A stretch of DNA of 49,909 nt. Source: Gemmatimonadota bacterium. GTDB lineage: Bacteria; Gemmatimonadota; Gemmatimonadetes; Gemmatimonadales; Gemmatimonadaceae. The stretch lies in contig DAIESF010000079.1 of NCBI GenBank assembly GCA_027346425.1, positions 1 through 49,909 on the forward strand, read 5' to 3'. The notes under the pieces are model-generated. The model was given only the letters and a program-made list of their open reading frames with translations, was not told where the DNA came from and ran no database searches. Each line of letters begins with the position of its first letter. The stretch's first letter is position 1. Below, one piece after another: positions 3,005 through 48,079 of the stretch. The position numbers and the translations under genes were made by a program.

Positions 3005-4621
3005 TCAGGGGACGACCGGCGCCCACTCCTTCCCCAGCCGGCTCATCAACCCCGCGTACAGCTCGATCGCATTCCACAGATTCTGCACCCGCAGGTTTTC
3101 GTTGGCGGCGTGCTGGTTGTTGTCGTAGTTGGCGATCGGCAGCGTGACCACGGGGACGCCCATCACCTCGGTGAAGAGGTAGCTCGGTCCGCTCCCGCCC
3201 AGCGTCGGAACCAGGAGCGGCGCCTTCTCGGCGCCGTCACTGATCGACGACACCAAAGCCCGCGCGAAGGCGTCGTCCATGCGGGCGCGCTGCGCGGGGT
3301 AGCCGCTCTCCCACTGCAGGCGCACGATGCGCGGGTACTTGAGCCGGTCGCCCAGCGACGGCGTATCGCTCACAATGTGCCACCCCTTGGTGCGCAGGTG
3401 GTGCTCCACGAGTTCACGCACCCGTTCGGGCGTCTGGTTGGGCACCAGCCGGAAGTCGATGGAGGCGTATGCCTCGGTCGAGATGGTGTTCGACCCCAGC
3501 TCCTGTACCCCGCCCACCCGGATCCCCCGGAGGTTGAGCGCGGGACGCATGATGCGCTCGGCCAGCAGGGCGTTGTTCCCCTCCGTGCGCGCCAGCCCTA
3601 ACGAGTGGCGAAGCGACGAGTCGACGGCCGGGAGCCCGGCGATCGCCCGGCGCTCGGCCGCCGAGATGGGGCGCACGTCGTTGTAGAAATTGGGGATGAG
3701 AATCTCGCCGTCGTCGTTGCGCAGGCTCGCCACGAGGTGCGTGAGGAGCATCCCCGGATTCGGGGCCCAGTTGCCGTAGTGCCCGCTGTGCAACGGGCGG
3801 TTGGGGCCGAACACCGTGAGTTCCAGCCCCGTCACGCCGCGCAACCCGAAGACGACCTGCTGCGCCCCGCTCTGATGCACCGGCCCGTCGCAGAAGAGCC
3901 AGGCGTCGCCCTTGAGGAGCGCCTTGTATTTCTCGAGGATCGACTTGAGGTGCCCGGAGCGCGCCTCCTCCTCGCCCTCGAAGAAGAACTTGATGTTGAG
4001 CGACGGGGCGGCGCCGCGCGACTTGAGCGCATCGAGCGCGGTGAGCATGGCGACAATCGATCCCTTGTCGTCGCTTGCCGAGCGCGCGTAGACGCGTGCC
4101 TCGCCGTCGACGCGTTGACCATCGGCCGGGAACGCGATGTCGCGCCCTCCCTGGTAGAGCGCCTTGTCGCGCAGCACCGGGGTGAAGGGTCCTCCGCCGG
4201 TCCACTGCTTCGGGTCGACCGGCTGCCCGTCGTAGTGCGCGTAGAGAACGATCGTGCGCGTTGCCCCGGGGACGGCCAGCTCACCGTACACCGACGGCGG
4301 CCCCCCGGCAACCTCGAGCAGTTGCGTCGTCGCCCCGCGCCGGCGCAGCATCTCCATCAGCGCTGCAGCGTTGCGCCGAATGTTGACACTGTCGCTCGCC
4401 ACGTTAGGCAGCGACAGGAGCGCGGTGTACTCGCGCAGGATCGCCGCCTCGTTCGCCTCGCGATAGCTGCGCGCCGCCTCGCGCGCCCCCCGCCCGCCGA
4501 GGTCCTGTGCGCGCGCAGGCATGGCCAGCGTCGCGATGCCCGCCAGCACCAACACGGCGCCGCGCGCCCCCCACATCTTCATGCTCGTCCAGTCCCGCAT
4601 GTGCATCTCCTCATGTGACAA
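3005..4621 (-). CDS. Secreted M20-family metallopeptidase (dipeptidase/carboxypeptidase-like)
   Basis: Signal peptide 'GAVLVLAGIATLAMPARAQ'. M20 motifs 'VLYAHYDGQPVD', 'RSASDDKGSIVA' and 'FFFEGEEEARSGH'. The start may be a downstream Met (e.g. 4582). Confidence 0.85.
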   Translation of the reverse strand: MSHEEMHMRDWTSMKMWGARGAVLVLAGIATLAMPARAQDLGGRGAREAARSYREANEAAILREYTALLSLPNVASDSVNIRRNAAALMEMLRRRGATTQLLEVAGGPPSVYGELAVPGATRTIVLYAHYDGQPVDPKQWTGGGPFTPVLRDKALYQGGRDIAFPADGQRVDGEARVYARSASDDKGSIVAMLTALDALKSRGAAPSLNIKFFFEGEEEARSGHLKSILEKYKALLKGDAWLFCDGPVHQSGAQQVVFGLRGVTGLELTVFGPNRPLHSGHYGNWAPNPGMLLTHLVASLRNDDGEILIPNFYNDVRPISAAERRAIAGLPAVDSSLRHSLGLARTEGNNALLAERIMRPALNLRGIRVGGVQELGSNTISTEAYASIDFRLVPNQTPERVRELVEHHLRTKGWHIVSDTPSLGDRLKYPRIVRLQWESGYPAQRARMDDAFARALVSSISDGAEKAPLLVPTLGGSGPSYLFTEVMGVPVVTLPIANYDNNQHAANENLRVQNLWNAIELYAGLMSRLGKEWAPVVP

Positions 4622-9332: not shown

Positions 9333-10168
9333 TTGGCCATTATGGCCATGTCGTCGTGGGCGTGGCCCGCGGCGATGAGGTCGTCCATGCGCTTCGCAAT
9401 CGCCCCAATCACCGGCATCGGTTCGCTCGCCGCCGATTCGAGCATCAACCGCGCATCCTTGCGCGCCACCTGCAGCTCGAACGAGGCGGTGTAGTCCTCG
9501 TCGAGGATCTTCTTGGCCCGGAAGGGGAAGCTGCCTTCGGGCTTGAAGCGGGAGAAGAGGCTCCAGGCTTCGCTGCGCTCCACCTCGAGCGCGTCGGCCA
9601 GGTGGAAGATGTCGGCCATGGTCGCCGACATCGACAGGATCATGAGGTTGCCAAACAGCTTGTAGCAGGCGGCGAGGTCGGGGCGTTCGCCGACATACCA
9701 GAGGTCGCCGGTCATCGGGGCCAGTACGTCGCGCACGGCGGTGAAGCGCCCCTCGGGACCGGCGACGAGCATGTGGCCGGCCGCGTTCCGTGCCGCCATC
9801 GGCGACATGAAGACCGGCGCGTGCAGATAGCGGATCCCCTCGTGTTCCATCCGTTCGGCGCGCGCCGCGACGAGGGCCGGGAGGTTCGTGGTGTGGTCGA
9901 TGACGATGGCTTCAGCGCTCAGTCCGTGCCGCATGGCATCGATGGTTTCATCGACCGTTGCGTCGTCGAGGAGGATGAGGTGCACGCGCCGGGCCCCGCG
10001 GACCGCCTCCTCCGGCGTATCCGCCACCTCGGCTCCCTTGGCCGCCAGCGCCTCGGCTTTCGCACGCGTGCGGTTCCAGACAGTGAGCTTCACCCCTCCA
10101 CGCGCGAGCAATCCCTCGGCGAATCCGGTGCCTAACAACCCGGTCCCGAGCAATGCAATGGATTCCAC
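9320..10168 (-). CDS. NAD(P)-dependent oxidoreductase, beta-hydroxyacid dehydrogenase / 6PGDH-NAD-binding family
   Basis: Rossmann N-terminus 'IALLGTGLLGTGFAEGLLARGG..LTVWNRT', followed by the family-typical C-terminal helical domain. Start set to GTG at 10168 (GTG at 10177 is also possible). The upstream part of the ORF only translates the repeat array (REDEKTRR). Confidence 0.8.
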   Translation of the reverse strand: MESIALLGTGLLGTGFAEGLLARGGVKLTVWNRTRAKAEALAAKGAEVADTPEEAVRGARRVHLILLDDATVDETIDAMRHGLSAEAIVIDHTTNLPALVAARAERMEHEGIRYLHAPVFMSPMAARNAAGHMLVAGPEGRFTAVRDVLAPMTGDLWYVGERPDLAACYKLFGNLMILSMSATMADIFHLADALEVERSEAWSLFSRFKPEGSFPFRAKKILDEDYTASFELQVARKDARLMLESAASEPMPVIGAIAKRMDDLIAAGHAHDDMAIMAKRGA

Positions 10169-10286
10169 AGTCGACACCTCAATAGCGGAGTTCAAGGCCA
10201 GCGAGAAAGATAAGGGGAGACACGCACCAGTGATGGTGCGGATCGATGTCCCCGTCAAAAAACTGGCGCCGCCAACGGCGGCGCCA

Positions 10287-10331
10287 TTCTCGTCTTCTCG
10301 TCTTCTCGTCTTCTCGTCTTCTCGTCTTCTC
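10287..10331 (+). repeat. Octamer tandem array A, (TTCTCGTC) x5.6
   Basis: Five perfect units plus TTCTC, read directly from the sequence. The last 2 nt overlap the TGA stop (10330-10332) of the M1 peptidase gene. Lies about 120-160 nt upstream of the oxidoreductase start. Confidence 0.95.
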
Positions 10332-12402
10332 AAGAGATGGTGTTCGGCTTCACCCACGTGTTGTTCGTCCGATCCACGTCCGCCAGCACCTCCTTCGGGT
10401 CGAGCACCACCTGCGTCACGGTCTTCTTCGTGAAGAATCCATAGTTGAAGACAAGCTCATTCCTGCGCCAGACGTCGGCGGGGAGCTTCACCAATTCCTT
10501 GCTCCCGTCGTCGTAGGTGAGCTCGATCTGCAGCGGAAGGACGAGTCCGCCCTTGTTCTCGATCTTGATGCGGTAGTAGGTCTCGCCCGCGCGGCTCGCC
10601 CCTAACAATGAATCGCCGGGCTGCGTTTCCACGCTGGCGATCCCCTGGTCGTTGGCGTAGGTGGTGTAGAACCAGCCGCGCCAGAAGTGATTGAGCTGCT
10701 CGCCGGCGCCGTCCTCGATCGAGCGGAAGAAGTCGGCCGGCTGCGGGTGCTTGAACATCCACTTGTGCGAATACTCGCGGAACGCCTCGTCGAACAGCGA
10801 GTCGCCCAGCACCTGCTCGCGCAGCATGACGAGCCCGGCCGCCGGCTTGGAGTAGCCGTTGTTCCCGAACTGCGTCTGGATGTCGTTCGACTCCGTCATG
10901 AGCGGGACCTGCGCGTCCTGCTTCATGTAGCCGACGATGTTCTTCGCCGGCCCGCGTTGCGACGGATAGGCGGGGTCCCAGTCCTTCTCGGCGTAGTACT
11001 GCAGGAACGAGTTGATCCACTCGTCCATCCATGTCCACTTTCGCTCGTCCGAGGCCACGACCATCGGGAACCAGTTGTGCCCCACCTCGTGGATGGTGAC
11101 CGAGACGAGGGCACGGGCCAGCCCCGGCGAGACCTGGCCGTCGGGGGTCGGGCGCGCGCCGCAGAAGGCGATCATCGGGTACTCCATCCCGAAGACCGGG
11201 CCGTGGACGTTCACCGCCTTCGGATATGGTTACTCGAACGACATGCGCACGTAGGTCTTCATCGTCTGGGCGATCGCCTTGGTGGAGACCGAGTCCCAGA
11301 GCGGCATGGCATCGCGCGGATAGAGCGAGTGCAGCTCGATCGGCTTCTCGGTGGGGCGATAGCGAAAGCCCATCGCATCCCACACGTACGTCTTGCTCGA
11401 CACCCAGGCGAAGTCGCGCACGTTCTCGGCCTTGAAGCGCCAGGTGAGCGGCCCCGTGCCGGCCGGGCGCGATTCGGGCTTCATGACCTCGTCAGGCGCA
11501 ACGATGAAGACGGGCTTGTCGCTCGTCCACGCCTTCGCCAGGCGCTGCTGCTGCGTGGCGGTGAGCACCTGAGGCGCGTTGGTGAGGACGCCGGTGGCGT
11601 TGACGATGTGGTTGCGCGGGACGGTGAGCTCGACGTCGTAGTTGCCGAAGTTGAGATAGAACTCCCCCTGCCCGAGGAACTGGTCGGTGGCCCACCCGTT
11701 CACGTCGTCGTACACCGAGGCCCGCGGGAACCACTGGGCAAGCTCGTACAGCCACCCGTCCTTCACCAGCTCCTTGGCGCCGCGCCCGTTGCGCCCTCCC
11801 TCGGGGATGAGGTTGTGCCAGTCGATCTCGATGATGGCCTGCTGCCCGGTGGTGATAGGGGTCGCCAGGTGCACCTTCATCACCGTCCCGTTGATCACGT
11901 AGCGCGCATCCTTCCGTACCCCCTTGGCGTCCACCACCTGCACCCGCGAGAGCGTGTAGCCGCCGTCGAAGGCCTCGGGGGCGAGGAAACGCCGCGCCTG
12001 CTCGGGAATGCGTGACGGGAGCGCCTGCTGCACCAGCGCCGCGCGCGAATCGGGGCGGTCGATATTCTGGTCGAGCTGGAACCAGACGTAGGAGAGCTGG
12101 TCGGGCGAGTTGTTGTGGTAGGTCACGCGCTCCGACCCCGTCACCGACTGCCTGACCGTATCGAGCGTTGCCTTGATGGAGTAGTCCACGCGCTGCTGCC
12201 AGTATTTGGGGCCAGGCGACCCGGCGGCGTTGCGGTACTCGTTGGGGTCTGGCCACTCCTCGATGGCGCGGAACGACGACTGGTTGGTCTTCTTGTCCTT
12301 GGCGTTCACCCAGTTCTGGGCGCCAGCGACGTTGGTGGCGAGCGCCAACGACAAGAGGACGAGAAGACGAGAAGCCGAGAAGACGAGACTTCGGGGGGGC
12401 AT
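10330..12402 (-). pseudogene. M1-family zinc metallopeptidase with signal peptide, interrupted by one in-frame TAA (11230-11232)
   Basis: ORFs 11230..12411 and 10330..11214 share one frame: '...KTYVRMSFE*PYPKAVNVHGPVFGMEYPMIAF...'. The downstream part carries HEVGH-x18-E. The upstream part carries the signal peptide MPPRSLVFSASRLLVLLSLALATNVAGAQ. The ATG at 12402 is preferred over GTG at 12411. Confidence 0.8.
12350..12389 (-). repeat. Octamer array B (5 slightly degenerate units), coding
   Basis: The plus strand reads gacaagag gacgagaa gacgagaa gccgagaa gacgagac. On the gene's sense strand this encodes SLVFSASRLLVLL of the M1 signal peptide. Confidence 0.9.
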
Positions 12403-12491
12403 GGTGTGCACGGCTGAGGATGATGGGACTGCTACTTCAGTCTACCGCTCTGCTGCTGCGCTCTCCTGCTCCAACCTGCTCATTCCCCGAC

Positions 12492-13100
12492 TCACCCCTT
12501 GGGGAAGCGTTCGACGATCATCTTGAGGCCGGCGAGGACGATCACGATCGACAGCGCGGTCGCCCAGCGCCGGCGGGCCAGGCCGGCGACCTCGCATGCC
12601 AGCGTCCCGACCAGCAGGACACAGGCGACGATCGCCAGTTGCCCAATTTCCAGCCCCACGTTGAAAGCGAAGAGCGGGATCACGATGCTCTCTTCGGCGC
12701 CGAGTATCGCCCGCAGGAAGTTGGAGAATCCGAGCCCGTGGATAAGCCCGAAACACCCGGCAAGGATGTAAAGGAGTACATGGCGCTCCGGAGCGTACCC
12801 CTCGCCGGTTCGTTCGGAGCGGGCCCGCGCAATCATTGAATAGCCGGCCGTCACCACGATCGTGACCGGGATCAGGAACTCGATGGTCTGGGCATGGACC
12901 CGCACCAGCTGCAGCGTCGCCAGCGCCAGGGTGACCGAATGGCCGACCGTGAAGGCGGTGACGAGCCAGAGCAGGCGTCGCCAGTCGCGGAGCGCGTAGC
13001 CCGCGGTGAGCGCGACGATGAACAGGATATGGTCGTAGCCCCGGAGGTCGGCGATGTGTCCGATGCCGAGCCGGAAGTAGGTGACGAATTCGGAATTCAT
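12492..13100 (-). CDS. HupE/UreJ-family membrane protein (Ni/Co permease family)
   Basis: 'MNSEFVTYFRLGIGHIADLRGYDHILFIVALTAGY...TVGHSVTLALA...GLIHGLGFS' and six hydrophobic segments. Start set to the ATG at 13100. Confidence 0.75.
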   Translation of the reverse strand: MNSEFVTYFRLGIGHIADLRGYDHILFIVALTAGYALRDWRRLLWLVTAFTVGHSVTLALATLQLVRVHAQTIEFLIPVTIVVTAGYSMIARARSERTGEGYAPERHVLLYILAGCFGLIHGLGFSNFLRAILGAEESIVIPLFAFNVGLEIGQLAIVACVLLVGTLACEVAGLARRRWATALSIVIVLAGLKMIVERFPKG

Positions 13101-23203: not shown

Positions 23204-23239
23204 TTCTCGTCTTCTCGTCTTCTCGTCTTCTCGTCTTCT
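23204..23239 (+). repeat. Octamer tandem array C, (TTCTCGTC) x4.5
   Basis: A perfect array fills most of the 47-bp gap between the amidohydrolase stop (23246) and the cydA ATG (23198). It ends 5 nt from that ATG. Confidence 0.95.
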
Positions 23240-28688: not shown

Positions 28689-28720
28689 GTCTCGTCTTCT
28701 CGTCTTCTCGTCCTCTCGGA
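28689..28720 (+). repeat. Octamer array D (gtctcgtc ttctcgtc ttctcgtc ctctcgga)
   Basis: Read directly from the sequence. It ends 4 nt before the blaI-like ATG (28725). Its edge variants match those of coding array B. Confidence 0.9.
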
Positions 28721-37421: not shown

Positions 37422-37430
37422 GTTCTAGAA

Positions 37431-37478
37431 GACGAGAAGACGAGAAGACGAGAGGACGAGAGGACGAGAGGACGAGGC
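37431..37478 (-). repeat. Octamer array E: GACGAGAA x2, GACGAGAG x3, GACGAGGC (plus-strand reading)
   Basis: Fills most of the 67-bp gap between convergent stops (37421 and 37489). Preceded by the palindrome TTCTAGAA (37423-37430). Confidence 0.95.
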
Positions 37479-40535: not shown

Positions 40536-40634
40536 TCACTGCCGCCACGGTCCCCACGGTCCCCACGGTCCCCACTGTCCCAACTGTCCCAACTGTCCCA
40601 ACTGTCTCCGCTGCCCCCGCTGCCCCCGCTGCTC
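40536..40634 (-). repeat. Compound 9-bp tandem array (about 11 units in three blocks)
   Basis: Plus strand: tcactgccg, ccacggtcc x3, ccactgtcc, caactgtcc x2, caactgtct, ccgctgccc x2, ccgctgctc. The minus strand carries G3-G5 runs every 9 nt. The array starts 11 nt after the M20 stop (40646). Confidence 0.9.
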
Positions 40635-40645
40635 TGGACGACCCT

Positions 40646-42118
40646 CTATTGCGCCACCGTCGACGACGCCAGCGCCTTGGTCAGCCGGTAGAGAAACTCT
40701 TGCCCCTCGAAGTACGAGCGTACGCCCATCCGCTCGTCCCGCCCGTGTGCTCGGGCGTCGACGGACGGGTCGCTGAACAGCCCTGAGACGCCGTAGGCCG
40801 GGATCCCTAACGCGCGGAAGAAGCGAGAGTCCGTCGCTCCGGTGCTCATTGTCGGGATCACCGGGATGTTTCCCCACAGCTCCCTGGTGATCCGCTCGAC
40901 CGGTCCCATGACTTCGCGGGCGAGCGCGGTGGCCGGGGTCGACGGACGCTGCGTGCGGATCACGACGTGCACCGTCGTGTCGGCGATCACCTTCTCGAAG
41001 GTCGCCTTCACTTCCTCGGCGTTCGACGTCGGGTAGATGCGGCAGTTGATGTTGGCCTCGGCGAGCTGCGGGAGGGCATTGCTGGCGTGGCCGCCGCTGA
41101 GCCCGGTCGCCACGCAGCTGGTGCGGAGCATCGAGTTGTAGCGCGGATCCCTGGTCACCACCGCGATCGCCGCCGCATCGTTCGAGTTCGCGACCAGCGC
41201 CTTCATCGCCTTCCCCATCTCCGGCGTTTCGAGGTTGGCGGTCTGGGCAAAGAAGGCGCGCGTCACCTCGTTCAGCTGTACCGGGAACTTGAAGCGTCCC
41301 ACCTTCGACAGCGCGTCGGCGAGCGAGGTGATGGCGTTGTCGTCGCGCGGGACCGAGGAGTGGCCACCACGGTTGGTGACGCGCAGCGTGAAGTTGGTGG
41401 TGATCTTCTCCGCCGCCTGCACGGAATTGAAGAGATGCTTCCCGTCACGCAGTGTTCCGCCGCCCCCCTCGTTCACCACCAGCGCCGCGTCCACAAGGTC
41501 GCGGTGGCTCTTGGTAAGCCAATCGACGCCGTTGAACGGTCCGCTCTCCTCGTCGGCGGTGAGCGCGATGATGATGTCGCGATCGGGGACGAACCCCTCC
41601 TGCTTCATGCGGAAGACGTTGGCGACGAAGATCGAGGCCATCGCCTTGTCGTCGGCAGTTCCGCGCCCGTAGTAGTAGCCGTCGCGCTCGGTAAAGACGA
41701 ACGGGTCGAGGTCGGGAGACCAGTCGGCCTTGAGCGCCTCGACCACGTCGATGTGCGCGAGGAGGAGCAGGGGCTTGCCCGCGTTAGGTCCGCCCTTGCC
41801 CCGGATGCGGGCGACGACGTTGTGCTTCTTGGGCTGCGGGCCGCCCACGAAGATGTCGGACTCGGGGATCCCCGCCTCGCGGAAGCGCTTCGCCATTGCC
41901 TGCGCGGCGGCGGTGATGTCGCCGGTCTCGACCCCGGTGTTGATCTCGACCAGCTCCTTGTAGATGTCGCGGGCGAGCTGCTGGTTGGGCGTCAGCTGGC
42001 CGGGAGTGTAGATGGGAGACTTCTGCTGAGCGCCGGCGGGGAGCGCCACTCCCGACGTCGCGGCGAGCGCGGTGCTCGCCGCGAGCGCCGCGAAGGAGAG
42101 ACGATTCATTGGGGGCAT
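40646..42118 (-). CDS. Secreted M20/M25/M40-family metallopeptidase
   Basis: Start 'MPPMNRLSFAALAASTALAATSGVALPAGAQQ'. 'LLLLAHIDVVEA...GRGTADDKAMASIFVA...ALTADEESG' are M20 metal-ligand motifs. The upstream 240 codons of the ORF only translate the repeat and the kinase 3' region. Confidence 0.85.
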   Translation of the reverse strand: MPPMNRLSFAALAASTALAATSGVALPAGAQQKSPIYTPGQLTPNQQLARDIYKELVEINTGVETGDITAAAQAMAKRFREAGIPESDIFVGGPQPKKHNVVARIRGKGGPNAGKPLLLLAHIDVVEALKADWSPDLDPFVFTERDGYYYGRGTADDKAMASIFVANVFRMKQEGFVPDRDIIIALTADEESGPFNGVDWLTKSHRDLVDAALVVNEGGGGTLRDGKHLFNSVQAAEKITTNFTLRVTNRGGHSSVPRDDNAITSLADALSKVGRFKFPVQLNEVTRAFFAQTANLETPEMGKAMKALVANSNDAAAIAVVTRDPRYNSMLRTSCVATGLSGGHASNALPQLAEANINCRIYPTSNAEEVKATFEKVIADTTVHVVIRTQRPSTPATALAREVMGPVERITRELWGNIPVIPTMSTGATDSRFFRALGIPAYGVSGLFSDPSVDARAHGRDERMGVRSYFEGQEFLYRLTKALASSTVAQ

Positions 42119-42127
42119 GGTGCGGAG

Positions 42128-42200
42128 GTGGTTCTGCAGTGGTTCTGCGGTGGTCCTGCGGTGGTTCTGCGGTGGTTCTGCGGTGGTTCGGATGTGGTGG
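42128..42200 (-). repeat. 11-bp tandem array (GTGGTTCTGCG on the plus strand, 6.6 units)
   Basis: gtggttctgca gtggttctgcg gtggtcctgcg gtggttctgcg gtggttctgcg gtggttcggat gtggtgg. Begins 10 nt upstream of the M20 ATG (42118), within the 145-bp gap after the kinase stop. Confidence 0.95.
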
Positions 42201-42263
42201 ACGCGTATGCCGGATCGGGCGATCGCGCGGAACGTCGAGGGCACGGTGGGGGAGCGGCGCCGA

Positions 42264-45200
42264 TCACCCCTTGCCACGCCGCAGCTCGGCGATTCGCTCT
42301 CGCGCCTTGCGTACCTTGGGCTGCAGCTCGGGCTCGGCATCCTTCCACAGGTCGACGAAGCGCTGGTAATAGTGCTCGGCCTTCGCCGTGTCGCCCTTGG
42401 CGTCGTAGAGTTCGCCGATGCGCTTGAAGGTCCCGGCGATGATGTTCGACTCGGTTTCCAGGTCGGACAGGGGGTGCTCGGCGAATCGCTCGTAGTACAC
42501 GAGAGCGGAGTCCGCCTGCCCGTCGAGATCGAAGGCGTCGCCGATGACGTAATTCGTGTAGCGCTCGCTCCGGTAGTATGCGCGTCGCGACTGCTGATAC
42601 TCGGCGATGGCGTCCTTGTATCGTCCCTCGGTGCGAGCGATGAGCGCGCGGAACCATGCATCGCGCCCCGCCGGATGGCCGGCGGCCGCCGAGTCACGCC
42701 GCGCCCCCGCCAACGCCGCGCGGGCCATCGATGCGTCTCCGAGGTGCATCGCGACTTCGCCGATGTAGTCCCACGGTCGTTCCGACGGGTCCAGCGACTC
42801 GAGCGGGATGCGGGCGATGGCGCGGTCGTAGAGCACACGCGCGCGCTTGCGGTCTTCGTGAAACAGCGCGGTCACGAACGTCGAGTCGAGTCCGGCCATG
42901 AGCTCGGGGGTCTTCGGGCCTCCGCCCTGGAGCGCCGCCTGGTTGCCCAGCGCGAGCCAGCGCAGCCCCTCCATGGGCTTCCCCCTCGTGAAGGCGATGG
43001 TACCGGCGTAGTACGAACTCTGGTCACGTTGCGCACCGCTGCGCGCGTCCCGATAGGCTCGCTCGGCGATGGCACTCGCGCTGTCGAGCTCTCCCTTCGC
43101 AGCGGCGATAGCGGCCTCGCCGGCCCAGTGAGTCGCGTTGGAGGGAAGTCGCCGCTTGAATTCCTGCTGCGTGCGCCTCGCGCCGGTTGTGTCTCCGATG
43201 GACACGTACGCTTGCACGAGATTCGTGAACGCCCCGCCGAACGGGCGAGGGACTCGCGTGGCCCGTTCCAGTGTGGCGATCCCCTTCTTGGTGTCGCCGA
43301 CCCTCCCGTACAGCGTCGACACGTTGTTGAGCGCCGCCTGGTTGGAGGAATCGCGCGCCACCAGCGCCTCGTAGGCGGCGATGGCGCGATTCACGTCTGG
43401 GTCGGGGCCGTACGTCCAGTAGCTCCCCTCCGTGAGGAGTCGCTCGTTCTCGCTCAGCCGGTCGCGATGTGCATACGCGTTCATGATCGCCCGCAACTGT
43501 TCTTCGCGTCCGCGCCCGGACCCCACCCACGACGAAGCCAGCCGGCGCCAGGCCATCGCGAAGGTGGAGTCGAGCGCCACCGCCTCGCGCAGGAGTCCCT
43601 GCCCGCGCTCGGCATCGCCGAGTGAGGAGAGCACGTCGGATGCCTCGACGTACTTGCGAAGCGCGGGGAGCGACGACGTGGTCACGCGCTCCAGCGATTG
43701 CGCCTGGCGGATGTCGCGCAGCGATTCGCCGACCTTCTGGCGCACGTCGTGCGACAGTCGCCCGAGGGCGGCGATCAGCTCGGCGTCGTCCTTTGCCGTC
43801 TCGCGGAACGTGGCCAGTTCACTTCCATCGAGCGAGGCCACGAGGCGCGCCGAGACGACGTAGCTGGGGCCGAGCTTGTCGATCGCGCCATCGAGGACCG
43901 CCTTGGCCCCCTCGCGGGTGGCGATCTCTCGCGCGGCGTCAAACTCTACCGCCTGCGCCTCGCTCCGTCCCATCAGCCGCAACGCCTCGCGCAGCGCCGC
44001 GCGCGTCATCACGCTCAGGTTCTTCGACTGCGCCAAGTCGGTCCGGATCGCCTCGGCGACGGTGGCGCCGAGGGTCGAGTCGCCGTTCGGGGGACGGAAG
44101 TCGGCCACGACCAGCGTCTCGCGATCGCCGAACGCGCCAGCGCCACGCAGCGACCCCATCGGCCCGATCCCGAGGGCGCGCAGGACCATGAAAGCGACGA
44201 TGAACGTGGCGAAACTCCCCGCAGCGATCGCGCCGCCCATCCAGGTGCGCCGCCAGGACACGTGCGGCGCCGCCTTGACCGCGATAGTCGCCAGCGTCCC
44301 CTGCGGCACAATGCTCCCGCCGGGCGTGAGCGTCGGGGTGCTGACCAGCACCCGATGCGAAGTGCGCTGCACGTACCAGGTTCCGAGCACGGCCGGAAGT
44401 CCCGCGAGCATCACCCCGATTGCGCCGGGAAAGGCCCAGTCGGGGAGCCCGATGGTCCGCGTCGCCGCCCACGCGGTGACGCCAACCAGCGCGGTCGCCC
44501 CGCCCCAGACGGCGAGGGCGCGTCCGAGCCGCATCTGCGGTCCACGCAGCGCCTCGGGGACGACTCCACCCCCGGTCGAACTGACAGAATCAAGGACGCG
44601 CACCAGTTCGCTCGCCCCCGCCGGGCGATCGACCGCTTCCTTGGCCAGGCAGCGCATGATGACGTCGGCGAGGGCCGGCGGCGTGTCGGGGCGAAGCTCG
44701 CGCACGTCACGCGGCGTCTCGCTGAAGTGTGCGGCGATGAGGCGTGCCTGCGAGTCGGCGACGAACGGCGGACGCCCCGCCAGCAGCTCGTACGCCATCG
44801 CCGCGAAGGCGTACAGGTCGGCCCGATGATCGAGCGCCTGGTCTCCGGCTGCCTGCTCTGGCGCCATGTACGCCGGGGTCCCGATCGCCGTCCCGGCAAC
44901 CGTCAACGTCGCCCCGCCGGGGGCCATCGTGCGGGCGGCGGTGAGCGCCTTGGCGATCCCGAAATCGGTGACCGTCGCGCTCGATCCGGCCAGGAGGACG
45001 TTGTCCGGCTTGATGTCGCGGTGCACCACCCCGTGCGCATGCGCGAACTCGAGCGCGCGCGCCACATCGCGGAGGATCGCCGTGATCTCTCCCAGCGAGA
45101 GCGGACCGCGCGACAGTCGCTGGCGGAGCGAATCGCCCTCGACGTAGGGCATGGTGAACCACGGGAGCCCGTTGGCGTCGCCGGTAGAGAGCACAGGGAC

Positions 45201-45625: not shown

Positions 45626-48079
45626 ATGCCCCCACGTCTTCTCTTCTTCTCGTCTTCTCGTCTTCTGACCCTGTCGCTCGCGCTGCTAGCCGCGACGCCA
45701 GCGACGCCCAAGGCGCAGCAATTCCTGCGACCGAGCGACATCAACGCCCTCCCCAGCAAGCCGGCCGACGCCCGCATCCCCTACGGCCCCGACTCGCTCC
45801 AGTTCGGAGACCTCCGCCTGCCTAACGGGAAGGGACCGTTCGCCGTCGCCATCGTGATCCATGGCGGCTGCTGGGTGCACGCCTATGCCGCGGCCCAGAA
45901 CTCGGCCGCGCTCGCCGATGCGCTGCGCGACGCCGGCATCGCCACCTGGAACATCGAGTACCGCCGGCGCGACAACCCGGGGGGCGGGTGGCCCGGAACC
46001 TTCCTCGACGTCGCCGCCGCCGCCGACTCGCTGCGTTCGCTCGCCAAGCGCTACCCACTCGACCTCACCCGCGTGGTGGCGGTCGGTCACTCCGCGGGAG
46101 GACAGCTTGGGCTCTGGCTCGCCGCCCGTCGCAAGATCCCCTCCAGCTCCCCACTCGCCGCGAACGATCCGCTCCCCCTCGCCGGCGTCGTCGCACTCGG
46201 CGCCCCCGGCGACCTGCGCGACTTCAACAGCTATGGCGACGCGATGTGCGGCGAGGGGACGATCCCCAAGCTCCTCGGCGGAAGCTACGACCAGGTCCCC
46301 GATCGCTGGCGCGACGCCTCCCCGAGTTCGTTTCTCCCGTTAGGCGTTCCGCAGGTGATGCTGGCCGGCGACGCCGATCGCATCATGCCCCGCAAGAACC
46401 TCGAGGCGTGGGCCACTGCCGCTCGCGCCACAGGTGACAGGGTGGACGTGGTCGTCGTCCCCAATGCCGCCCACCACGAGGTAATGTCACCACGGAGCGT
46501 CACCTGGCCCTACGTGCGGGATGCGGTGTTGCGCACCGCGCAGGTGACGTTGCCGAGCGCACAATCCAGTGAGCGCTGGTGGAACGATGTCCAGCGTCTC
46601 AGCGCCGACTCCATGAAAGGGCGCCAGACCGGAAGTCGCGAACACCGCCAGGCCGCCGAGTACACCGCCGCCGCTTTCAAGGATGCCGGGCTCAAGCCGG
46701 CCGGGACGAAGGGGTACTTCCAGCCGGTGCACTTCATCTCGCGCACCATCGACGAGTCGAAGTCGTCGCTCACCCTCATTCGCGACGGCAGGGAGGAGAC
46801 GCTGGTATTGGGCGAGGACGCCAGCTTCATCCTGCGCGCCCCGCTTGCCGAGTCGGTCGAGGCCCCGGTGGTCTTCGCGGGCTACGGCTTGCACCTGCCG
46901 GAGTACGGGGTGGACGACCTGGCCGGGATCGATGTGAAGGGAAAGATCGTCGCCTACATTACCACTATGCCCAAGGGGGTCCCCGGCCCCGTCGTCTCGC
47001 ACTCGCGCGCCCAGGCGTGGGAAACGCTGCGTGCCGCCGGGGCGGTGGGGGTGATCACCTTCGCCGGGTCGCCGGCGAACGACGGCGCCTTCATCAGGGG
47101 GAGCGCCAACCGGCTTGCACCGCAGATGACGCTGGAGGAACCATCGCTCGATTCGCAGCGCGGTAACCGTCTCGCCGTCAGCTTCAACGTGGCCAGAGCC
47201 GCCAAGCTCTTCGCCGGCGCCGCCGAACAATTCGCCGCCATCGCCGCCCGCGCCGACTCGGGGCTCCCGCTCCCGCACTTCGCCCTTCCGGTTCGCCTGC
47301 GCTCGCATGTCTCCCTCGTCACCAGCACGGTCACTTCCGACAACGTCGTCGGACTCCTCCCCGGAAGCGATCCCACACTGCGCAACGAGTATGTCGTCAT
47401 CTCCGCCCACCTCGACCACGTCGGGATCGGTCGCGTGGTGAACGGCGACAGCATCTACAACGGCGCAATGGACAATGCTTCCGGGACCGCCCTCCTCATG
47501 GAGGTCGCCCGCCGGCTGCACGAAGGGAAGGTGAAGCCGCGCCGCTCCCTCCTCTTTACTGCGGTCACCGCCGAGGAGAAGGGGCTGCTTGGCTCTCGCT
47601 ACTTCGCCAATCACCCCACCGTCCCGGCGTCTCGCATCGTCGCCGACCTCAATACCGACATGTTCATGCCCATCGTCCCCTTCACGATGGTGATGGTGAA
47701 CGGGCTCGAGGAGTCGAACCTGGCCGACGACGCGCGCAAGGCCGGGGAGATGATCGGGGTGAAGGTCGTGAGCGACCCCGAGCCCGAGGAGAACCGCTTC
47801 ATCCGCAGCGACCAATACTCGTTCATCCTGCGCGGCATCCCGTCGCTCTCCTTCAAGGTGGGCTTCGCCCTCAACACGCCGGAGCACGAGGCGGTGAAGG
47901 AGTTCAGGGCGAAGCGCTATCACTTCCCGCGGGACGACGTGAGCCAGCATGTGGACCAGGCGACTGCCGAGGGATTCACGCGGTACTATGTCGAGGTGGT
48001 GAAGCGGGTCGCCGACCGCGACGTGAGAGCGCGCTGGAACGACGACTCGTTCTTCAAGCGACTGGCTCGCAAACGGTAA
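45626..48079 (+). CDS. Secreted fusion protein: alpha/beta-hydrolase (esterase-like) + PA domain + M28 aminopeptidase
   Basis: Signal MPPRLLFFSSSRLLTLSLALLAATPATPKAQQ. 'IVIHGGCW...VVAVGHSAGGQLGLW' is a Ser-hydrolase nucleophile elbow. 'VISAHLDHVG...NGAMDNASGTALLMEVA...FTAVTAEEKGLLGSRYF' are M28 zinc ligands. Confidence 0.85.
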   Translation: MPPRLLFFSSSRLLTLSLALLAATPATPKAQQFLRPSDINALPSKPADARIPYGPDSLQFGDLRLPNGKGPFAVAIVIHGGCWVHAYAAAQNSAALADALRDAGIATWNIEYRRRDNPGGGWPGTFLDVAAAADSLRSLAKRYPLDLTRVVAVGHSAGGQLGLWLAARRKIPSSSPLAANDPLPLAGVVALGAPGDLRDFNSYGDAMCGEGTIPKLLGGSYDQVPDRWRDASPSSFLPLGVPQVMLAGDADRIMPRKNLEAWATAARATGDRVDVVVVPNAAHHEVMSPRSVTWPYVRDAVLRTAQVTLPSAQSSERWWNDVQRLSADSMKGRQTGSREHRQAAEYTAAAFKDAGLKPAGTKGYFQPVHFISRTIDESKSSLTLIRDGREETLVLGEDASFILRAPLAESVEAPVVFAGYGLHLPEYGVDDLAGIDVKGKIVAYITTMPKGVPGPVVSHSRAQAWETLRAAGAVGVITFAGSPANDGAFIRGSANRLAPQMTLEEPSLDSQRGNRLAVSFNVARAAKLFAGAAEQFAAIAARADSGLPLPHFALPVRLRSHVSLVTSTVTSDNVVGLLPGSDPTLRNEYVVISAHLDHVGIGRVVNGDSIYNGAMDNASGTALLMEVARRLHEGKVKPRRSLLFTAVTAEEKGLLGSRYFANHPTVPASRIVADLNTDMFMPIVPFTMVMVNGLEESNLADDARKAGEMIGVKVVSDPEPEENRFIRSDQYSFILRGIPSLSFKVGFALNTPEHEAVKEFRAKRYHFPRDDVSQHVDQATAEGFTRYYVEVVKRVADRDVRARWNDDSFFKRLARKR
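45631..45670 (+). repeat. Octamer array F (cccacgtc ttctcttc ttctcgtc ttctcgtc ttctgacc), coding
   Basis: Lies in codons 3-15 of the hydrolase-M28 gene and encodes RLLFFSSSRLLT. Confidence 0.9.

Follow-up and report, generated by a model that had tools for sequence, protein, structure and literature searches.

An octamer, TTCTCGTC, is tandemly repeated at several sites in a 49,909-nucleotide (nt) stretch of DNA from a Gemmatimonadota bacterium (GenBank assembly GCA_027346425.1, contig DAIESF010000079.1, positions 1 to 49,909), referred to here as the window. Two of the arrays lie directly past the start codons of genes for putative secreted enzymes, an M1 family metallopeptidase and a fusion of a BD-FAE esterase with an M28 peptidase, and it is their translation as part of the predicted signal peptides of these precursors that is considered here. 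Tandem Repeats Finder identifies six period-8 arrays of the octamer in the window, whose G+C content is 68.6%, a density of about one per 8 kb. Matches to a 16-mer with two mismatches or fewer number 20 in the window, against 0.04 expected from shuffled sequence. Loci and contigs carry labels of the form L###, and protein orthologues labels of the form P####, in the analysis's own numbering.

On the pyrimidine strand of the octamer (the T strand) all three frames are free of stop codons and, 8 and 3 being coprime, give the identical cyclic octapeptide, FSSSRLLV. The opposite, purine strand is likewise stop-free and translates to DEKTRRRE. The octamer is therefore open in all six frames and an array can be absorbed into an open reading frame (ORF) in any register. 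An earlier reading of this DNA, made from the letters alone (the sequence-only reading), pointed out that the two coding arrays are used in the same frame relative to the unit. Since every T-strand frame gives the same cyclic peptide, the shared frame is uninformative and is not evidence of relatedness.

The M1 peptidase gene and its array-coded N-terminus

The M1 ORF occupies 10330..12402 on the minus strand (690 codons). Its product matches the C-terminal part of Pfam family PF01433 with E = 2.1e-14, and the HExxH motif is present as HEVGH. Read on the minus strand from 12402, the 5′ end is ATG CCC CCC CGA AGT CTC GTC TTC TCG GCT TCT CGT CTT CTC GTC CTC TTG, and the N-terminus translates as MPPRSLVFSASRLLVLL, then SLALATNVAGAQ. 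The array here, array B (12350..12388, minus strand), has about five units (GTCTCGTC TTCTCGGC TTCTCGTC TTCTCGTC CTCTTGTC); it starts at nt 15 after the A of the ATG and lies within codons 5–18 of the precursor.

The predicted Sec signal peptide of M1 (12319..12402, minus strand, with the ATG at 12400-12402) comprises 28 amino acids (aa), MPPRSLVFSASRLLVLLSLALATNVAGA, and is followed by Q29. Its cleavage site was placed by alignment with 120 orthologues (A-x-A, then Q(Q/N)W), the window's A-G-A and Q-N-W aligning with the orthologues' A-x-A and QQW. Two arginines, R4 and the array-encoded R12, precede the hydrophobic run. The hydrophobic region (h-region), LLVLLSLALAT, is 11 uncharged residues long and has a maximum 9-residue Kyte-Doolittle mean of 3.11. 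What the array encodes, residues 5–18, is n-region plus the first 5 of these 11 residues. Starting instead at the in-frame TTG after array B would leave 7 uncharged residues and no arginine. All 120 of the 120 best M1 orthologues are about 690 aa long with a signal peptide of 20–35 aa and A-x-A followed by Q(Q/N)W(L/V)N.

M1 is intact in five independent conspecific assemblies, four of them long contigs with 99.2–99.4% nt identity (99–99.9% across assemblies of the species). In the four conspecific contigs that span the gene, public gene calls use the same ATG as in the window, give a product of 690 aa and retain the same number of octamer units. The window copy has an in-frame TAA (11230-11232) where all orthologues and the conspecific alleles encode Tyr (FE*PYPKA vs FEYPYPKA). 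It differs also at codons 2, 10, 290, 385, 423, 433 and 462, and the non-conservative changes among these, G385V and G462W, do not occur in the four conspecific assemblies. The window copy is either a pseudogene or a local consensus of low quality.

The spacer between the HupE gene and M1 contains, in five conspecific contigs, an 82-nt palindromic element with a GC-rich centre and the ends GCCATCTCATAAATGGTCG and CGACCATTTATGAGATGGC (at about 3678-3759 in L112–L114 and at the corresponding site in L115 and L116). It is not present in the window, where the empty site is at about 12430-12436, nor in L111 and L117. The insert has the look of a miniature inverted-repeat element, possibly with TAG duplicated.

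The esterase-M28 fusion gene and its array-coded N-terminus

The fusion gene lies on the plus strand at 45626..48079, begins MPPRLLFFSSSRLLTLSLALLAATPATPKAQQ and encodes 817 aa, in which Pfam recognises a BD-FAE esterase followed by an M28 peptidase. Array F (45635..45666, plus strand, 4 units) starts at nt 10 after the A of the ATG and falls within codons 4–14. The predicted signal peptide (45626..45715, plus strand) is about 30 aa long, its cleavage position being approximate: those of orthologues end ...A-x-A-Q, then F/Y-L-R-P, and the putative cleavage region here is P-K-A, then Q-Q-F, with an atypical Pro at −3. Two arginines (R4, R12) stand ahead of an h-region of 12 uncharged residues, LLTLSLALLAAT. 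The array-coded residues, 4–14, include both arginines and the first 2 of the 12 h-region residues. To reach another in-frame start codon one must go 191 nt downstream, into the BD-FAE domain. In the conspecific contig L120 the gene is called from the equivalent ATG, with an equal unit count and a perfect unit.

Both N-termini had been transcribed and translated exactly in the sequence-only reading. Its description of the array as the signal-peptide core holds for the n-region and for the first five (M1) or two (esterase-M28) residues of the h-region, and not for the whole core.

Other fused esterase-M28 forms, at 71–77% identity, are P0122–P0127. In three related species the esterase and the M28 peptidase are encoded by two neighbouring genes, and both products have a signal peptide (L121 495-3111, L123 488-3096, L122 1-2529); in the window fusion the array-coded signal peptide proper to the M28 half has been lost. 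In the CAZLLP metagenome-assembled genome (MAG; L122 1-120) the esterase starts MPSRLRSPVSRFSSLL..., encoded by a heptamer-like variant in which TCTCCCG is repeated; this signal peptide, too, may contain a decayed or variant array.

Orthologues with and without coding arrays

The arrangement recurs in other species. An M1 orthologue in L161, with 88% aa identity and an identity of 0.63 at fourfold sites, begins ATGCCCCGCCGTTCCC, continues with five octamer units and then QNW, and has the same 16-nt offset from the ATG as in the window's species. It was found in a scan of metagenomes with the pattern ATGCC-N(1-28)-GTCTTCTCGTCTTC, which returned mostly chance matches in unrelated organisms; nine of the matches were real arrays on contigs of high GC, and only in L161 did the array come with a long ORF that has a domain. 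Among M28 genes, those of at least three other species (L121, L122, L123) consist of ATG, 10–16 nt and about five octamer units, with no other start codon ahead of the conserved mature sequence; the N-terminus in L122 is MPPLVFPSSRLLVFLLAA. At the protein level, array-type N-termini are seen in the M28 orthologues P0140, P0139, P0134, P0136 and P0132.

Elsewhere in the same two lineages the array is decaying or missing. L101, an M1 orthologue at 88–90%, has decayed array remnants upstream of and within the N-terminus, and L102 appears further decayed. Ordinary predicted signal peptides free of any array are found in the M1 protein of L104, in the esterases of L121 and L123 and in P0137. The HupE–M1 synteny is kept in L101–L104 and L111–L114. 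From these alignments, array-coded predicted signal peptides have descended together with their genes in more than one species, and this in two lineages, M1 and esterase/M28. Neither lineage needs the array as a module, because other orthologues in both have ordinary signal peptides. Of the sequence-only reading's proposal that the repeat was exapted as an N-terminal export module, the co-option into predicted export signals therefore stands and the implied requirement for it does not. The reading had also raised the prospect that orthologues might start downstream of the arrays, which they do not, or that the two cases might be a simple local duplication; the M1 gene of L161 and the five M28 proteins just named make them more than that.

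Neither the window's esterase-M28 protein nor a 390-aa N-terminal fragment of its M1 had an identical entry in exact look-ups. The window has substitutions specific to its strain, and the conspecific contigs were reached by way of the neighbouring BlaI and HupE genes. In the JBDTUA MAG, syntenic with the window across 5.8-14.3 kb at about 77% nt identity, there is no M1 gene between HupE and NAD_binding_2, and a single octamer array is found there (L017 1860-2151, compared with window 10081-12508).

The non-coding arrays and the stability of unit number

Array A (10287-10331, plus strand, 5.6 units) begins at the TGA stop codon of M1 and in the sense of the M1 mRNA reads GACGAGAA. Directly after it comes an intrinsic-terminator-like hairpin (10264..10286, minus strand) with a 10-bp stem, 9 of whose pairs are GC, a 3-nt loop and then GTTTTTTG. 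Array C (23204..23239, plus strand, 4.5 units) separates the M20 peptidase stop (23246) from the cydA ATG (23198), both on the minus strand. In mRNA sense it too is the purine GACGAGAA, just past the M20 peptidase stop and 5 nt before the cydA ATG. Array D (28690..28718, plus strand, 3.6 units) is in the 5′ leader of a BlaI/Penicillinase_R repressor gene and ends 6 nt before its ATG (28725). This is the common non-coding context. That array D has the edge variants of array B, GTCTCGTC and TCGTCCTCT, and no in-frame start upstream had been noted before and is confirmed. Array E (37427..37476, minus strand, 6.2 units) fills the gap between the convergent DUF5916 (stop 37421) and amidase (stop 37489) genes.

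In the coding arrays the number of units is constant. It is equal in the six assemblies compared for array B (window, L111–L114, L117) and in the two compared for array F (window, L120); across species it is 5 in the M1 genes of two and about 5 in the M28 genes of three. Array A, by contrast, varies: L114 carries 3 units, L111 and L112 carry 4, and both L113 and the window carry 5. Array D is identical in 8 conspecific contigs and one unit longer in the more divergent L128 (3.6 vs 4.6), and arrays C, D and E are invariant among the few near-identical contigs compared. Orthologous intergenic arrays of species with 80–94% flank identity have 8 vs 5 units at one site and 3 vs 2 vs 5 at another. 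All of these counts come from consensus assemblies, in which minority variants are invisible. In simulation, neither protein survives a change by 1 or 2 units in full length, the outcome being truncated products of 8–71 aa or an out-of-frame product of 300 aa; a change by 3 units keeps the frame. A coding array would have its unit number frozen, because the reading frame is lost with a change of 1 or 2. Unit counts that are fixed in coding and variable in non-coding arrays are what frame constraint would be expected to produce in a sequence otherwise evolving by slippage. Comparison of L111 with L161 gave 9 of 11 array codons identical, against a third-position identity of 0.63 elsewhere; a claim of nucleotide-level constraint on the coding arrays was dropped, 11 comparable codons being too few.

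No Rfam family was found in the window. Its other tandem repeats, at 40537-40632 and 42118-42198, have units of 9/18 nt (GTCCCAACT-like) and of 11/22/33 nt (GGTGGTTCTGC), lie at the edge of or inside a long minus-strand ORF (40646-42838) and are unrelated to the octamer.

The repeat family in other genomes

A scan of a species-representative genome collection with three perfect units found at least 100 stretches. Among the matches listed, 83 of 100 are in 11 MAGs of Gemmatimonadaceae, Gemmatimonadales or Gemmatimonadota, with many loci per genome, and the remaining 17 stand singly in organisms unrelated to these. Several MAGs have dozens of array loci each. The arrays lie outside long ORFs or at ORF edges in 125 of 133 cases and hug gene boundaries. 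Outside the window, a start codon in the same sense, mostly ATG, is found within 35 nt past the TTCT end of 34 of 127 arrays (mode 11 nt), and in 25 of the 127 a T-sense array is 6–14 nt upstream of an ATG. In 41 of the 127 a stop codon in the opposite sense precedes the array by 2–19 nt, often as TGAGAAGACG or TAGAAGACG; 14 arrays precede a start in the opposite sense and 16 follow a stop in the same sense. Some occupy the entire spacer of co-directional genes.

Across 133 arrays the flanks are not conserved, apart from TTCT, a partial unit that closes the array at one end, and a bias towards C at the opposite end, and flank profiles of 123–130 arrays show no terminal inverted repeats or target-site duplications. 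The lack of conserved flanks disfavours an element of the miniature inverted-repeat type or a cassette. Arrays are kept at orthologous intergenic sites between species of 80–94% flank identity. From these distributions, TTCTCGTC is taken to be a family of short tandem repeats that is dispersed through the genomes of Gemmatimonadaceae, a family of soil bacteria, is specific to them and is found mostly in short spacers by start and stop codons. A bacterial paper containing the array string, or one on repeats of Gemmatimonadetes, was not found in the open-access texts searched, and the family is apparently undescribed so far.

Inverted array pairs with GC-rich loops of 8–14 nt are found between genes in L014, L062, L076, L087, L091, L097 and L161, where the pair comes after the M1 stop; such pairs could form long hairpins acting as (bidirectional) terminators. 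Long single octamer arrays (104–248 nt) occur in three unrelated genomes, those of a deltaproteobacterial MAG, Photobacterium damselae and Syntrophobacter (L005 29-276, L032 1529-1632, and L036 4794-4913 in minus-strand numbering, 3088-3207 on the plus strand). Two of them adjoin heptamer arrays, and they look like isolated variable-number tandem repeats rather than a dispersed family. TTCTAGAAT at the array ends was considered as part of a sigma-70 promoter and rejected: there is no consistent −35 element, and many of the arrays lie in operon spacers that could not accommodate a promoter.

Alternative explanations

Several other accounts of the arrays behind these ATGs have to be weighed. One is that the octamer tract slips by single units and so switches the secreted peptidases on and off, in the manner of phase variation in Neisseria opa (PMC3745409). 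Units of 8 nt do not divide evenly into codons, the tract directly follows the ATG, a change by 1 or 2 units would yield the truncated or out-of-frame products given above, and slippage is seen in the window's own species at array A. However, the counts of arrays B and F are the same in all the consensus assemblies compared, orthologous coding arrays share their unit number across species, and the tracts are short (4–5 units) and broken by substitutions, which makes phase variation quite improbable. The notion of a mobile or duplicated 5′ cassette (ATG-Pro-Pro-Arg, the array and SLAL) copied between M1 and esterase-M28 starts from ATGCCCCCnCG ahead of the array and (C/T)TGTCG(C/T)T(C/G)GCGCT, encoding LSLAL, after it in both genes, and from the N-terminus of P0140, an M28 peptidase of another species, which is very similar to that of the window's M1. 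But the shared ATGCCCCCnCG is short, a C-rich 5′ edge is general to the arrays and a Leu/Ala-rich likeness is typical of GC-rich h-regions. The sequences upstream of the two ATGs are unrelated, the 133 arrays have neither inverted nor direct terminal repeats nor conserved flanks beyond TTCT, and the arrays are vertically inherited with their genes, as in the syntenic HupE–M1 loci. The mobile cassette offered by the sequence-only reading is accordingly not borne out and must be rated very unlikely. There is even less to be said for mis-assigned starts, by which both arrays would be 5′ leaders like array D. A leader is the commonest context of T-sense arrays and in-frame TTG codons do follow array B, yet esterase-M28 and the M28 genes of L121 and L122 have no start ahead of the conserved mature sequence, every orthologue needs a signal peptide, and the stretch left after the array lacks both the length and the charge to be one; this account is scarcely credible.

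An unlikely, though not far-fetched, alternative is that a reason at the RNA level keeps the array by start codons and that its translation in signal peptides is a by-product. The array could provide a purine-poor, weakly structured initiation region, or it could be the target, in cis or in trans, of the complementary GACGAGAA arrays in 3′ untranslated regions (UTRs). The clustering of T-sense arrays 6–14 nt upstream of ATGs fits this, and leaders in the host genome are C-rich with few GGAG. Predictions of folding over −30..+45 in 19 genes give the weakest values to the three that have a T-array at their start (−5.0, −6.8 and −11.8 kcal/mol vs a median near −14), although low structure is automatic for a purine-poor sequence. 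The M1 mRNA would have a T-array at its 5′ end and a perfectly complementary array right past its stop, with a predicted duplex of −76.8 kcal/mol, and this two-array layout is found also in L161 (about 2250-2400) and, decayed, in L101 (6119-6230); the M28 and esterase-M28 genes, however, have no 3′ UTR array. Array A followed by the terminator hairpin has the layout of a small RNA derived from a 3′ UTR, but a terminator-like hairpin with a T-run comes after only 10 of the 44 arrays that follow a stop codon. Analogous proposals have been made for TAACTGA repeats (PMC4679880). An RNA-level role of this sort can coexist with incorporation of the array into signal peptides. A more far-reaching version, a genome-wide code in which pyrimidine arrays at starts pair with purine arrays past stops, many of the latter preceding terminator hairpins, either in cis or, as RNAs derived from 3′ UTRs, in trans, is improbable; if true, it would co-regulate a set of genes including secreted peptidases, and the reading as signal peptide would be a tolerated consequence.

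A GGAG-like Shine-Dalgarno motif precedes about 2–3 of 19 genes, and upstream regions are C-rich and purine-poor (gene starts of L124, L111 and L120, all of the window's species). This suggests that initiation in the window's organism is largely independent of Shine-Dalgarno pairing.

Probable incorporation of the octamer into signal peptides

Set against these accounts, it is probable that the array is translated in M1 and in esterase/M28, forms a needed part of their present predicted Sec signal peptides and has been inherited as such across species. The in-frame position of the array, the lack of an alternative start, the conserved arrangement and the stable coding versus variable non-coding copy number are established. 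The octamer, non-coding at most of its sites, would then be translated within two export signals, as the sequence-only reading had proposed. Export of the two precursors, and cleavage where predicted, is what their composition and alignments lead one to expect.

How it came about may be pictured as follows. The octamer is normally non-coding, next to gene boundaries, and changes in length by whole units. Its pyrimidine strand encodes, in any frame, one Arg, then Leu-Leu-Val-Phe and then a Ser-rich stretch. Since that strand is stop-free and always gives FSSSRLLV, an array just past an ATG reads as an n-region and the start of an h-region. Its translation fits the n/h junction of a signal peptide, and because of this fit a secreted protein whose ATG came to be separated from its remaining codons by an array would tolerate it, and the array would join the export signal. 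Either a leader array gained an upstream ATG or an array arose within an existing signal peptide; both orders can be envisaged. A weakly structured, purine-poor start region may have been an added benefit.

Some observations pull the other way. The nonsense codon in the window's M1 means that the full enzyme would not be produced from this particular sequence. Array-coded N-termini have been found in two gene lineages only. An exhaustive phmmer search of 1.84 billion representatives with the M1 signal peptide (30 aa) as query found 0 matches at E <= 0.001, and a synthetic 40-mer (MPPRSLV, three times FSSSRLLV and FSLALLAAT) used as a protein query gave, from 178 candidates, one irrelevant match. 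Codons ending in T (TCT, CGT, CTT) persist in the arrays despite a genome with about 90% G+C at third codon positions, which could reflect nucleotide-level constraint rather than mere tolerance, with 11 codons available for comparison.

Comparison with known repeats and signal peptides

The closest analogue of the coding copies is the CTCTT pentamer of Neisseria opa genes, a ‘coding repeat’ within the coding sequence for the leader peptide. Its tracts are long and their repeat number changes at about 1e-3 per generation, which constitutes phase variation (PMC3745409). Both are pyrimidine-rich short tandem repeats with a unit not divisible by 3, right after the ATG and translated in a signal peptide. 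CTCTT, when translated in the present analysis, is also stop-free and Leu/Phe/Ser-rich in every frame. The octamer differs by its apparent stability: its coding tracts have 4–5 units with no variation in count seen among strains or species, and it is mostly intergenic. With ordinary Sec/signal peptidase I (SPase I) signal peptides the two N-termini share the n/h/c layout, and that of M1 shares also A-x-A, followed in all M1 orthologues by mature Q-(Q/N)-W; what sets the two apart is that a genome-wide repeat, in place of unique sequence, codes for some of their n- and h-region residues. A ‘Q-rule’ of Bacteroidetes, Gln at +1 of Sec/SPase I signal peptides, was reportedly described by Bochtler et al. 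in 2018.

For the family as a whole the nearest likenesses are heptamer repeats of other phyla, TAACTGA and those of Nostoc. Cyanobacterial repeats of the STRR type are said to have been originally described by Mazel et al. in 1990. Like the octamer they are lineage-specific, dispersed, intergenic tandem repeats of short units near start codons, suspected of a regulatory role. They differ in phylum, unit length and sequences, and there is no report of their translation into export signals. In Nostoc PCC 7120, heptamer repeats lie near start codons and promoters (bioRxiv 10.1101/2022.06.06.494920). TAACTGA direct repeats occur in marine Beggiatoaceae, some Cyanobacteria and Bacteroidetes, where 169 sets of 2–6 copies are mostly a few nt upstream of start codons and there are few canonical ribosome-binding sites (MacGregor 2015, PMC4679880). 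They have no predicted self-structure, a few copies overlap the start or end of an ORF, and their origin and spread are unexplained (PMC4679880). They resemble the octamer in that one short unit is tandemly repeated at many dispersed sites, often just upstream of start codons. However, the heptamer has stops in all frames of its forward orientation whereas the octamer is open in all six. The octamer also abuts opposite-sense stops as often as starts, an adjacency to stops not described for TAACTGA, and its translation yields a conserved signal peptide that looks functional and belongs to real enzymes, not to hypothetical ORFs. Its unit matches no known heptamer sequence (TAACTGA, CCCCAGT and others), which makes it an analogue and not a member of those families.

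Implications

The two enzymes provide a conserved example of what would be the incorporation of a genome-wide non-coding repeat into protein-coding sequence, which works because the translation of the octamer happens to fit the loose rules of signal peptides. Gene callers and signal-peptide predictors should not discard such low-complexity N-termini as artefacts. The more interesting problem is the function and spread of the octamer family itself, an abundant family in a poorly studied phylum that hugs start and stop codons and is retained at orthologous sites across species.

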